A DNA stretch of 20,000 bases from an uncultured virus (IMG/VR IMGVR_UViG_3300036770_001202) (taxonomy: Duplodnaviria; Heunggongvirae; Uroviricota; Caudoviricetes): IMG/VR virus record IMGVR_UViG_3300036770_001202. The stretch is one strand, 5' to 3'. This document shows positions 3,127 to 19,212 of this stretch, piece after piece. Position 1 is the first letter of the stretch, and each line of letters begins with the position of its first letter. The notes beneath the pieces are model-generated. The model was not told the origin of the DNA. It made no database searches and was given only the letters and a program-made list of their open reading frames with translations. The translations under genes were made by a program, and so were the position numbers.

Positions 3127-3151
3127 ATACCGAGAGTGTTGGGTAAAAAAC

Positions 3152-3171
3152 TACTGTATGGGTATACAGTA
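3152..3171. promoter_or_regulatory. LexA (SOS) box-like operator TACTGTATGGGTATACAGTA
   Basis: 20-bp palindrome TA-CTGT-N8-ACAG-TA matching the Beta/Gammaproteobacterial LexA consensus, directly adjacent to a -35 box. Confidence 0.75.
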
Positions 3172-3200
3172 TTGACAAACCCTTATAAATGATGTATCAT
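3172..3200 (+). promoter_or_regulatory. Sigma70-type early promoter
   Basis: TTGACA (3172-3177), 17-bp spacer, TATCAT (3195-3200), 22 nt upstream of ATG 3223. Confidence 0.8.
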
Positions 3201-3222
3201 ATTGCTTGAAATAGAGGTTTAT

Positions 3223-3714
3223 ATGAAGATCACTTTAAGGACTAAAAACGGTGCTGTTCTTACCACCTTTGAACGAAAGTTGGTAAAGTTGGCTGCTATG
3301 TTTTACGCCAATAAATTGATGACTCCTAGAATGGTAAACTCTTTGGGGCTTGTGATAAACGTTCACAAAGATTACCATACTAAAACCGGATATCTAGGTG
3401 ACGTAGTTCCTACGGACGATGATGTAACTTCCCGACCAAAGGAATTTGAAATCAATCTAGATTTACCAAAGAGGTTCAAAAGACTTCTTATTTCGCTTGG
3501 GCATGAAATGGTTCACGTTAAGCAGTATGCAAAGGGTGAATTGAAATTTCATGAAAGAGGAAACGTAGTTACTTTTCAGAAACAACAATACACGGATGAT
3601 GAATATTGGGAATCTCCTTGGGAGATTGAAGCATATGGACGAGAACCTGGACTCTGGCAAAAATTCAAACCAACCTACCGACTCCTTCTGGCAGAAAATC
3701 GAAACAAAGGTTGA
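3223..3714 (+). CDS. Zincin-like HExxH metallopeptidase
   Basis: GHEMVHVKQY (HExxH) plus YWESPWEIEAY with a probable third ligand Glu. Start moved to ATG 3223 because of GAGG RBS at 3214-3217. Confidence 0.8.
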   Translation: MKITLRTKNGAVLTTFERKLVKLAAMFYANKLMTPRMVNSLGLVINVHKDYHTKTGYLGDVVPTDDDVTSRPKEFEINLDLPKRFKRLLISLGHEMVHVKQYAKGELKFHERGNVVTFQKQQYTDDEYWESPWEIEAYGREPGLWQKFKPTYRLLLAENRNKG

Positions 3715-3988
3715 ACAGATACAATCTGTTACCGTAAAAAGTTTCGGTGAAGTCTGCGGCTGGATAGGTCTGGTGTTGATTCACGGATCAACTGTACCAG
3801 TCACACTTTCTGCACTAGCAGGACAAGCAGTATTACTGCCTCCTATTAGTATGGTTTTGTTGATTTGGTCAGGACTATTACTGTTTTTCATTCGATCTGC
3901 AATTCAAAAAGATCGATTGTATATGGTAAGTAATGGTGTTGGTTTCTTCCTGCAAAGTGTGGTTCTTGCGCTACTAGTTTTTAAATGA
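3635..3988 (+). CDS. Small membrane protein with about 3 TM helices, SemiSWEET/PQ-loop-like pattern
   Basis: Three hydrophobic segments (GWIGLVLIHGSTVP; SMVLLIWSGLLLFFI; KDRLYMVSNGVGFFLQSVVLALLVF). GGAG at 3621-3624 favours ATG 3635. Confidence 0.65.
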   Translation: MDENLDSGKNSNQPTDSFWQKIETKVEQIQSVTVKSFGEVCGWIGLVLIHGSTVPVTLSALAGQAVLLPPISMVLLIWSGLLLFFIRSAIQKDRLYMVSNGVGFFLQSVVLALLVFK

Positions 3989-4116
3989 AACGGTGCTGCA
4001 ACTTTGATTGTAGACAAGGGCGTGACTGCCCTAATAGAAAGGCGTATGATGTAAATCCTATGTGGATTGCAATTGCCTTTGTGATTGTTGCGATTATATC
4101 ATTTATTTCATTATGA
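3985..4116 (+). CDS. Small Cys-rich membrane-anchored protein (43 aa, absent from ORF track)
   Basis: MKRCCNFDCRQGRDCPNRKAYDVNPMWIAIAFVIVAIISFISL*, with ATGA overlaps at both ends (3985-3988 and 4113-4116). Confidence 0.7.
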   Translation: MKRCCNFDCRQGRDCPNRKAYDVNPMWIAIAFVIVAIISFISL

Positions 4117-4493
4117 TGATCATTCATACACATTTTAAAAAACCCAAGCAAAAGAAAAAGCCAGGATGGCAAAAAGCACAAGCCGAATATGATGCATGGC
4201 TGCGGTCTGTCGGCGTAAATCCAAATCAGAAAAAAGTGAAGCGAGAGTTTATACCTTATGTACCGGAACCAGCAAAGCCGAATTACAGAGAGACAAAACA
4301 CATACCAAGCCTTTCGGAAAAGGATGCAGTATCTAAACTACAAAGCATTCGTGGACAAAGCCAGACTCCAAAACAAGAGCCCAAAGTCTACACCGGAACT
4401 CGACTCATCGGCATTGGTATGTTGCATAAGTCAAATCTAGTACCAATCTTTAGCAAAGAAGAAGCCGAAGATCAAGCAAAGATGCGAAGATAA
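4113..4493 (+). CDS. Conserved basic hypothetical protein of T4-like phages
   Basis: Start reassigned to ATG 4113 (coupled to the upstream stop). C-terminal VYTGTRLIGIGMLHKSNLVPIFS...AKMRR is a motif I recall from T4-like phage hypotheticals. Confidence 0.7.
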   Translation: MMIIHTHFKKPKQKKKPGWQKAQAEYDAWLRSVGVNPNQKKVKREFIPYVPEPAKPNYRETKHIPSLSEKDAVSKLQSIRGQSQTPKQEPKVYTGTRLIGIGMLHKSNLVPIFSKEEAEDQAKMRR

Positions 4494-4508: not shown

Positions 4509-4516
4509 TATAAATA
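4509..4516 (+). promoter_or_regulatory. T4-type late promoter TATAAATA
   Basis: Exact gp55 late consensus, intergenic, about 40 nt upstream of ATG 4556. Confidence 0.8.
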
Positions 4517-4543
4517 AGCCTGTAATCAAATACAGGCTTTTTT
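4516..4543 (+). terminator. Rho-independent terminator of the early operon
   Basis: Stem AAGCCTGTA/TACAGGCTT, loop ATCAAA, followed by a T-run. Confidence 0.75.
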
Positions 4544-4555
4544 GTTTGGAAAACA

Positions 4556-5782
4556 ATGAAATTTAAAGAATATCTTTTAGAGCAGAAAAATACGCACATG
4601 GAACATGCTGAGGACGATGTTCTCAATCATGGCGTAGAAGGAACTCGCAACAGTATTAACGCACTCAGAGCGGTGCGTGATATGCTTGCTGGTCACTCGG
4701 AAAAGAAGGTTGACGTAACAGTTAAATGGGACGGCGCGCCAGCAATTTTCGCAGGACAGGACCCTGGTGACGGAAAGTTTTTCGTTGCTAAAAAGGGTGT
4801 GTTCAATAAGAATCCAAAAGTATACAAAACGTTCGCAGAAATTGATGATGACACTTCAGGCGACTTAGCAGATAAACTCAAAGCGTGTTTGATGTGGCTG
4901 CCAAAGATTGGAATTAAAGGCGTCATTCAAGGCGACTTACTATTTACCCAATCCGACTTAAAGACAGCATCAATCGATGGTGAAGAGTATATAACATTTC
5001 ATCCAAACACAATCGTATATGCAGTTCCCTCAAAAAGTGAACTTGCTAGAAGTATCAAATCTGCTAAAATTGGCATTGTATGGCATACGTTTTACGAAGG
5101 TGATTCGTTCGAAACAATGTCAGCAGTATTTGGTAAAGACATTTTATCCACACTTAAGAAAGACCGAAATGTGTGGATGACAGACGTAGACTATAAGGAT
5201 GTGTCTGGCAAAGCAACAATGACAAAAGAAGAGACTGAAAAAGTGACGGCAATTCTATCCGAAGCAGGTAGAATATTTCAGAAATTAGATGCTACAATAT
5301 TAAATGCAATTAAAGACGATGAAGAACTCTTGATGCGTATTAAGACATTTAACAATACTAAGATAAGAGCAAGACTACAAATTACAGACGTAAGAAAGCA
5401 TGTTCAAGAGTTAATCGATTACATACAAGAAGTATATACAAAAGAAGAAGAAAGTAAGAAGAGCGAAAAGGGTAAATTGTCCGTCACCCTTAAACGCAAT
5501 CGCATTTTGAGATTTTTCTCTGCGAGAAACAAAACATCACTTGAAAACATCTTTACCATGATGAACTTGCTTGCTGAAGCAAAGTTGATTCTGATTAAGA
5601 AACTAGACGAAGTGAAAAATTTACACACATTCTTGCTTACAAAGAATGGCTATGAAGTCACGGGTGTCGAGGGCTACGTTGCTATCGACAAATTAAAAGG
5701 TAACGCAGTTAAACTGGTAGACAGACTGCAATTCAGTTATGCGAACTTTTCGCCTGACGTAATCAAAGGATGGCAACGATAA
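4556..5782 (+). CDS. Conserved T4-like protein (DUF6267-like) with ATP-dependent ligase/covalent nucleotidyltransferase motifs
   Basis: TVKWDG (motif I KxDG), IQGDLL (III), VEGYVA (IV) and AVKLVDR (V). N-terminus MKFKEYLLE resembles a T4 capsid-targeting sequence. Confidence 0.7.
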   Translation: MKFKEYLLEQKNTHMEHAEDDVLNHGVEGTRNSINALRAVRDMLAGHSEKKVDVTVKWDGAPAIFAGQDPGDGKFFVAKKGVFNKNPKVYKTFAEIDDDTSGDLADKLKACLMWLPKIGIKGVIQGDLLFTQSDLKTASIDGEEYITFHPNTIVYAVPSKSELARSIKSAKIGIVWHTFYEGDSFETMSAVFGKDILSTLKKDRNVWMTDVDYKDVSGKATMTKEETEKVTAILSEAGRIFQKLDATILNAIKDDEELLMRIKTFNNTKIRARLQITDVRKHVQELIDYIQEVYTKEEESKKSEKGKLSVTLKRNRILRFFSARNKTSLENIFTMMNLLAEAKLILIKKLDEVKNLHTFLLTKNGYEVTGVEGYVAIDKLKGNAVKLVDRLQFSYANFSPDVIKGWQR

Positions 5783-14265: not shown

Positions 14266-14628
14266 ATGATTGAATTGAATAATGATAATTTTGACGAGTA
14301 TGCAATCAGCAACTACAAAAATCCAAATTGCACCTCTGTTTTAGAATTTCTTGATGATTTAAAGATTATAAAGTATATCAAGAGACTTGTCAACAAATAT
14401 GTTGAAAAGAATGAGTTGAAAGAGAGATTGTTGTTAAATCATATAATCTCTCTTTCAAATGTGTTTGGAGTAGAAGCAACTGTCAATATGTTATGGTTTA
14501 AAATTGAAAAAGAAAACCATGATGTGTTGAATGCATTTTTCGTTTATTTAAAATATGTCGATCTGAAAGAGGTAGACGTATTAGATTTAAATTTGTATAA
14601 TAAATTGGAAAAAAGTATAAATGGCTAA
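14266..14628 (+). CDS. Conserved T4-like hypothetical protein
   Basis: ELNNDNF..YA...Y.NP.C...EF.DDLK..KYIKRL...LKERLLLNHII...NVFG pattern, recalled as widespread in T4-like phages. Confidence 0.7.
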   Translation: MIELNNDNFDEYAISNYKNPNCTSVLEFLDDLKIIKYIKRLVNKYVEKNELKERLLLNHIISLSNVFGVEATVNMLWFKIEKENHDVLNAFFVYLKYVDLKEVDVLDLNLYNKLEKSING

Positions 14629-18905: not shown

Positions 18906-19187
18906 ATGAAACCTTTTTTAATTGCAATGGCGATTGCTGTATTTCCTTTTTCAGCACACTCTCAAATTGTAATGCAGAAACAAGTTGTCTGCGACAAGCC
19001 TATTGTTGTGATGAGGGCTTTGGAAAAAGACTTCGGCGAAGTTCCGATATGGGCATCACAAACAGACGATAAAACTTCAATCATACTAGTGGTCAACAAG
19101 GATAAAGAAACTTGGACTATGATTGAAATGAATTCGGAACTAGCATGTGTTCTGAGTTCTGGTAAAGGACTTCCTGTCACCACTTGA
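18906..19187 (+). CDS. Small exported protein
   Basis: Signal peptide ending AHS, VVC...ACVLSSG Cys pair, AAGGA RBS. Confidence 0.7.
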   Translation: MKPFLIAMAIAVFPFSAHSQIVMQKQVVCDKPIVVMRALEKDFGEVPIWASQTDDKTSIILVVNKDKETWTMIEMNSELACVLSSGKGLPVTT

Positions 19188-19212
19188 CATTTGACCTGAC
19201 ACCGTGTATAAT
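19184..19212 (+). promoter_or_regulatory. Consensus sigma70 promoter for the primase gene
   Basis: TTGACA (19184-19189), 17 bp, TATAAT (19207-19212). Confidence 0.85.

Follow-up and report, generated by a model that had tools for sequence, protein, structure and literature searches.

The stretch analysed here, called the window throughout, comprises 20,000 nucleotides of an uncultured virus of the class Caudoviricetes (IMG/VR record IMGVR_UViG_3300036770_001202) and carries, upstream of a short operon, a palindrome that resembles the operator of LexA, the host SOS repressor. This LexA-type SOS box, TACTGTATGGGTATACAGTA, is a 20-bp palindrome without an assigned strand at positions 3152-3171, with its CTGT-N8-ACAG core at 3154-3169. 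The 3' edge of the box directly adjoins a -35 hexamer, TTGACA (3172-3177), which is followed after a 17-nt spacer by the -10 hexamer TATCAT (3195-3200), identical in the related contigs L100, L300, L305 and L302. AGAGG at 3213-3217 and the ATG of the first gene at 3223 come next, all on the plus strand. The TTGACA-N17-TATCAT promoter scored 11/12 in a promoter scan and ranked among the three best of the window. Transcription is predicted to start near 3207, with the box centre about 46 bp 5' of that start. In structural terms, the box is an 8-bp stem flush with the -35 hexamer; it is AT-rich, has no T-run and is not among the calls of a terminator scan.

Behind the promoter, four plus-strand genes overlap or abut (3223-4493), with this one promoter at their head and an intrinsic terminator at their end (4516-4545, plus strand; a stem and T-run with a fold of -15 kcal/mol, z = -4.45). 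Gene 1 (3223-3714) encodes a 163-amino-acid HExxH protein with a predicted zincin-like fold, and gene 2 (3635, or alternatively 3596, to 3988), which overlaps it, a small membrane protein with three hydrophobic segments. The 43-amino-acid product of gene 3 (3985-4116), which is Cys-rich at its N-terminus and hydrophobic at its C-terminus, has 60% identity to its counterparts in L300 and L305; gene 4 (4113-4493) encodes a 126-amino-acid basic protein. The operon is no compositional island, since the guanine-cytosine (GC) content is even (0.33-0.42) across the window. Elsewhere, the window carries genes for a UvsX-like recombinase, for the DnaB-like helicase gp41, for a primase and for a GH19-type endolysin. 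Compared with its counterpart in Methylophilales phage Melnitz, a phage classified in Kyanoviridae, the gp41 helicase has 64.7% identity; with the helicases of cyanomyophages, identity is 61-65%. As read from these 20 kb of its genome, the phage is T4-like and Kyanoviridae-like. A sequence-only reading of this DNA had already described a four-gene operon in a T4-like phage, and the coupled genes, promoter, terminator and T4-type replication genes bear that description out.

The same reading had placed the box flush against its promoter, fitted it to the consensus CTGT-N8-ACAG and counted two differences in 20 positions from the Escherichia coli recA operator, and all three statements held. Read from NC_000913.3, the K-12 recA operator is TACTGTATGAGCATACAGTA, identical to the box at 18/20 positions. 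According to excerpts of two reports, CTGT-N8-ACAG is the LexA operator of E. coli (PMC8565304) and the LexA motif of most Betaproteobacteria (PMC6595937); in the same excerpts, the motif of Alphaproteobacteria is GTTC-N7-GTTC and that of Bacteroidetes GGA-N5-TCC or CTAA-N5-TTAG (PMC8565304, PMC6595937). The box fits the LexA operator at every informative position. By its sequence, it is a very good LexA-type operator of the Beta- and Gammaproteobacterial class.

The extended pattern TACTGTAT-N4-ATACAGTA, allowing up to three mismatches, occurs once in the window, with no mismatch over its 16 flank positions, against 0.10 expected; 20 of 200 shuffles hold a match at that tolerance. The bare CTGT-N8-ACAG core occurs twice against 0.32 expected (8/200 shuffles reach two), and its second copy is the stem of the operon terminator (4520-4535, CTGTAATCAAATACAG), a hairpin that also lies 3' of the basic-protein gene in the distant relatives L346 and L366. 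The exact 20-mer of the box is also found in 17 other IMG/VR contigs with a GC content of 0.45-0.61. One of these, L082, has a Peptidase_S24 (UmuD-like) gene 21 nt downstream of the 20-mer. Among 13 open reading frames (ORFs) flanking the 20-mer that were scanned, one matched Peptidase_S24, one DUF1654 and 11 no family.

The box match is not due to chance, because five variants of the box in related contigs keep its half-sites, its N8 spacing and its junction with the -35 hexamer. These variants lie between the gp41 and DUF6267 genes and are those of the window, L100, L300/L305, L302/L204/L253 and L195/L224. All five keep ACTGTAT and TACAGTA, exactly eight nucleotides between CTGT and ACAG, and the junction of ACAGTA with TTGACA, and they vary at positions 9-13. 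L100, which came from a metagenome scan and shows 86% amino-acid identity, reads AACTGTATACCTTTACAGTA directly followed by TTGACA, with positions 2-8 and 14-20 unchanged and positions 1, 9, 10, 11 and 13 different. In L195, the flanks and the promoter spacer have no visible similarity to the window, yet TACTGTATAAATTTACAGTA directly before TTGACA is retained. L100, L300, L305 and L302 were found without use of the motif. The nearest record, G001, stops before the box, as do L101 and L106.

To what extent the box is shared was assessed with a DUF6267-anchored search, which returned 80 loci, 75 of them with both gp41 and DUF6267, and the interval between the two genes was scored on the 16 flank positions. 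A box with at most two mismatches was present in 4/75 syntenic intervals, namely those of L298 (a near-identical twin of the window), L300, L305 and L302. Box presence in these intervals is all-or-none, and conservation of the box is real but patchy. The peptidase gene is not what it follows. The sequence-only reading had proposed to test for positional conservation upstream of peptidase homologues, and this test fails for most of them: the box occurs in three of the 35 peptidase-bearing syntenic loci, one being the near-identical twin, and none of the 39 loci inspected among 80 peptidase-anchored IMG/VR loci (at most 61% identical) has a LexA-type box upstream of the peptidase gene. In those 39 inspected loci, the gene has a TTGACA-N17-TA(T/C)AAT promoter, and in many of them ATTTCATAATGTGAAAT stands about 25 bp before its -35.

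The gene that travels with the box is instead that of the basic protein. In L204/L253 (gp41 86% identical) and L195/L224 (gp41 77%), the box lies flush to TTGACA between gp41 and DUF6267, the basic-protein gene stands directly behind box and promoter, and the genes for the peptidase, the three-segment membrane protein and the Cys-rich peptide are absent. The basic-protein gene also directly follows box and promoter in L302, and a contig from another study (run X6) passes from the end of gp41 into a box of the same type. Because lineages without the peptidase keep this arrangement, the conserved unit consists of box, promoter and basic protein; in the window lineage, three additional genes stand between the promoter and the basic-protein gene. 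A wider motif scan with the flush design CTGT-N8-ACAGTATTGACA matched 118 viral stretches, whereas the reversed pattern matched 19; the count of 118 is inflated by one coding-sequence family that accounts for about 16 of the 80 stretches fetched. As a separate observation, the IMG/VR contig L239 carries three tandem CTGT-N8-ACAGTATTGACA units on its minus strand (about 2494-2654), 60-70 bp apart, and has no protein similarity to the window.

Two relatives carry a full box at a second position, here called locus 2. The boxes are TACTGTATGCATGTACAGTA in G004, a 143-kb record, and TACTGTATAGAGATACAGTA in G010, the contig of L301, one further full box in each; their loci are L386/L416 (G004, about 1499-1518) and L395/L418 (G010). 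The order at locus 2 is box, GTTTTTACCCC, a GTTGT-N6-ACAAC hairpin, a TTGAC(A/C)-N17-TATACT promoter and then three conserved genes. The box stands at the start of the homologous region, with homology between G004 and G010 beginning 4 nt before it. A promoter-anchored scan of this locus recovered four loci with three distinct sequences, two of which have the box. For the 221-amino-acid protein of locus 2, a scan of viral contigs gave only its own record and one 99% copy.

The explanation we favour, by a modest degree, is that the box is an operator for the LexA of the phage's beta- or gammaproteobacterial host. If so, a few genes of a T4-like phage are probably tied to the DNA-damage state of the host cell. 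A dimer of host LexA on the box would occupy about -36 to -55 and contact the -35 hexamer and the upstream RNA polymerase contact zone, and we infer that it would damp the early promoter in undamaged cells. Once host RecA is activated, either by UV or other damage before infection or by infection itself, LexA would cleave itself and the promoter would fire fully. The derepressed operon would then supply the basic protein and, in the window lineage, also the zincin-like protein and the two small membrane proteins. The sequence-only reading had gone further, suggesting a sensor for pseudolysogeny exit or a damage-triggered counter-defence. Neither suggestion is supported, as no result bears on either.

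LexA operators on mobile elements are known switches out of lysogeny, and coliphage 186 tum and CTX phage provide LexA-controlled temperate-phage genes. In temperate phages and plasmids, such operators gate the exit from lysogeny, whereas here the target is an early operon and the relatives that were searched have neither an integrase nor an S24 repressor. Peptidase_S24 had no match in five related records, one of them 100% complete with terminal repeats, and a tyrosine integrase family likewise had no match in five related records; control genomes did match in both searches. The SOS boxes of E. coli, such as that of recA, have in common with the window the CTGT-N8-ACAG core, the TA flanks, the 20-bp palindrome and a sigma70 promoter. 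For a mobile element that reads the SOS state through host LexA operators at its own promoters, GIL01 with its promoter P1 offers a precedent, as described in excerpts of PMC4551915 and PMC6182141. Another comes from alphaproteobacterial phages, for which an excerpt of PMC9437464 proposes that the lytic programme is tuned through CtrA sites in phage promoters ('lytic deferment'). The two cases are alike in placing sites for a global host regulator in phage promoters, although regulator, motif and host class differ. Within the library searched, literature searches turned up no paper describing LexA operators in strictly lytic phages, whether T4-like or not.

A number of observations weigh against a LexA operator, starting with its position. 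E. coli LexA operators usually lie over the -35, the -10 or the transcription start; at recA, the box is placed between and over -35 and -10, whereas in the window, which comes from a lytic T4-like phage, the whole box stands 5' of the -35 hexamer, touching it but overlapping none of these elements. At locus 2, the box ends 57 bp before the -35, a distance at which bound LexA would not simply occlude the promoter, and a third variant of that locus, L417, has lost the box and keeps a single half-site. Among the syntenic relatives, 71/75 have no box, with four to six mismatches, the level of shuffled sequence. The sequence-only reading had tied its case to the half-sites being kept in close relatives; they are kept in five variants while the spacer changes, but L314 (gp41 93%) and L301 (gp41 85%), which are closer relatives, have no box, and box presence does not track overall relatedness. 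The L204/L253 and L195/L224 examples are biased finds, since the pattern used to search for them contained the motif. On the host side, OM43 is the host of the nearest isolate, Melnitz, in which no convincing box is present: none of the six CTGT-N8-ACAG sites of this phage has extended LexA flanks or stands beside a recognisable promoter in the sequence context examined. Methylophilales reportedly use a different, noncanonical betaproteobacterial LexA motif. DUF6267 relatives in genome contigs amounted to three contigs of metagenome-assembled genomes from unrelated taxa (titled Saprospiraceae, Marinovum and Melainabacteria), whose 55-56% identity was judged uninformative as a host clue. Two structural observations add to these points. 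In relatives, the box position or the sequence just 5' of it is occupied by other palindromes, which fits a generic stem-loop position: in L301 (about 2845-2880), a GTTGT-(T-rich 6)-ACAAC palindrome lies 3 nt from TTGACA at the place of the window's box, and relatives with 58-61% peptidase identity (L003-L018) have the palindrome ATTTCA-N5-TGAAAT (ATTTCATAATGTGAAAT) immediately 3' of the gp41 stop codon and about 25 bp before the -35. The GTTGT-N6-ACAAC palindrome recurs twice each in G003, G004 and G010 and has no copy in the window. A possible outer stem around box and -35 (3141-3182, plus strand), in which GGGT at 3141-3144 pairs with ACCC at 3179-3182, is weak evidence by its fold (z = -1.8). 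One compensatory change in this stem, from GGGT/ACCC in the window to GGCT/AGCC in L100 and L300 and GGGCT/AGCCC in L305, hints at a structural role.

These structural features lead to the main competing explanation, namely that the palindrome is the stem-loop of a cassette like the PeSLs and that its likeness to a LexA operator is a coincidence. PeSLs are described, in an excerpt of PMC4122927, as composite terminator/early-promoter motifs at indel boundaries in T4-like phages, shuffled by recombination. The window is similar in having a palindrome directly upstream of a near-consensus early sigma70 promoter and in placing this unit at a gene-content boundary, with the peptidase, membrane-protein and Cys-peptide genes and an 80-amino-acid gene variably present. 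The start of homology just before the box at locus 2, the other palindromes at this position and the compensatory change in the outer stem are also in keeping with such a cassette. The window stem, however, differs from the terminator of the operon: it is AT-rich rather than GC-rich, and no T-run accompanies it. PeSLs are described in the same excerpt as sets of copies within a genome (PMC4122927), whereas the window has one copy in its 20 kb and the related records of 143-152 kb contain either no copy (G003) or a single one (G002, G004). Across the five variants and the two of locus 2, the arms never covary, and the N8 spacing is constant while the paired length ranges from six to eight. Finally, an arm identical to a LexA half-site would need chance. 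On balance, we regard a PeSL-like stem-loop as unlikely, albeit the strongest of the competitors.

A second possibility is that LexA binds the box without repressing the operon, which we consider less likely again. As the box lies outside the core promoter, LexA could act from about -46 as an activator, a role in which it has been reported, or could simply be captured by a site that drains or holds it. The box centre about 46 bp upstream of the predicted start, the 57 bp that separate box and -35 at locus 2 and the three tandem box-TTGACA units of L239 would suit either variant. Against a sponge stands the single site per locus: one site cannot titrate LexA, which is abundant in E. coli. Lower still in probability is a different reader of the palindrome, either a phage-encoded regulator or another host factor for TGT-N8-ACA-type palindromes. 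LexA binding is a prediction from sequence and much of the phage genome lies outside the window, which leaves room for such a factor, but the related records searched have no S24 repressor, Pfam and PHROG scans named no regulator among the 24 window proteins, and no informative position of the site departs from the LexA operator. That the palindrome arose by chance and has no function is very unlikely. One in ten shuffles (the 20 of 200 given above) does match the flank pattern at up to three mismatches, but the box has none, and its half-sites are kept in five variants and at a second locus.

Returning to the LexA operator, the host would be beta- or gammaproteobacterial if its LexA reads the box, because the excerpts cited above assign CTGT-N8-ACAG to E. 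coli and to most Betaproteobacteria. The window DNA is present in sequencing runs labelled subsurface, riverine and freshwater, which is a weak hint in favour of such a host; no RNA run was among those listed. Contigs derived from such runs barely cover the box, with one 207-nt contig of run X7 starting at 3153. A more general hypothesis, which we put forward tentatively and hold to be doubtful at present, is that aquatic T4-like phages without known middle-promoter machinery wire some of their early promoters to the host SOS repressor. The class of operator would follow the class of host (CTGT-N8-ACAG in this freshwater clade), and LexA would sense damage or else act as a timer of the infection, released when the phage breaks host DNA. 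The type of box might then predict the host class.

If LexA does read the box, strictly lytic phages would also read the DNA-damage state of their hosts, which would bear on how phages and hosts interact in waters under sunlight or other stress. The box could also offer a clue to the host class of uncultured phages that needs nothing beyond their sequence, and would mark the small basic protein, a member of a very widespread family without assigned function, as a gene whose timing matters. LexA binding is cheap to test, because E. coli LexA recognises the CTGT-N8-ACAG class.

Gene 1 belongs to PHROG 10499, which has no assigned function, and matched no Pfam or NCBIfam family above cutoff. It has 498 relatives, and H94, E95 and H98 are invariant in 26 sequences. 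Its structural model is confident (pLDDT 92.1, pTM 0.88), and its top-ranking structural match, the YbeY-family chain 1oz9 (Z 10.6, root-mean-square deviation 3.4, 116 aligned residues), is followed by YbeY 7y7o (Z 9.6) and the catalytic domains of M1 aminopeptidases (Z 8-9.5). Weaker matches were Wss1 (Z 7.6), SPRTN (Z 6.8) and PprI (Z 6.6), and a Foldseek search against the PDB returned nothing at E <= 0.001. The sequence-only reading had called gene 1 an HExxH peptidase. The modelled structure agrees with an HExxH motif on a zincin-like fold, on which peptidase activity is plausible and a YbeY-like nuclease is equally open. For gene 2, the sole family match was a weak one to SemiSWEET_2 (E 0.23), and family scans gave no family for gene 3. 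Genes 1 and 2 overlap by about 80 nt in different frames (3635-3714), and a similar overlap is kept in relatives at 57-87% identity.

For the basic protein, a member of PHROG 27048, a profile search found 5,209 relatives; its C-terminus is invariant and has the form YTG..GIG.LHKSN.VPIF..A.DQA.MRR. Its model is poor (pLDDT 68, pTM 0.25) and mostly disordered, and the ESM Atlas gave no usable match. Among cultured phages, homologues were found only in Delftia phage PhiW-14, Acidovorax phage ACP17, Synechococcus phage BUCT-ZZ01 and phage C48C1, which match part of the protein with 34-58% identity and give a further weak hint to the host class.

Several further motifs were tried and set aside. Gram-positive-type GAAC-N4-GTTC boxes, prompted by GTGAACCAAAGTTCAC in L417, were as frequent as in the control in two of five records and slightly above it in three; the matches in Melnitz fall in sequence that resembles a tRNA, in a terminator or in what seems to be coding sequence. 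In ACP17, a CTGT-N8-ACAG site about 335 bp upstream of the basic-protein homologue was dropped, as it has no LexA flanks, is GC-rich and probably lies in coding sequence. The alphaproteobacterial motif GTTC-N7-GTTC occurs eight times in HTVC008M and eight times in its control, and two of the eight HTVC008M sites fall in a shared hairpin-plus-box unit. Separately, GAACCAAAGTTC follows the stop codon of the upstream methyltransferase-like gene in L417 (G011, about 276-287) and in G003 (134553), both of which have no CTGT-type box at locus 2.

Elsewhere in the window, Rfam scans returned no family and no tRNAs were found. The DUF6267 protein (4556-5782) contains VKWDG, which we take to resemble the KxDG motif of ligases and nucleotidyltransferases, and PHROG 455 matches both this protein and a neighbouring 855-amino-acid 'cytidyltransferase'-like protein. 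All long ORFs of the window lie on the plus strand. A perfect TTGACA-N17-TATAAT promoter is found on the minus strand at 14365-14393, within the plus-strand DUF7207 gene (14266-14628). Another perfect consensus promoter, at 19184-19212, lies upstream of the primase gene (19254), and an inverted repeat, CACCGT/ACGGTG, spans its -10.

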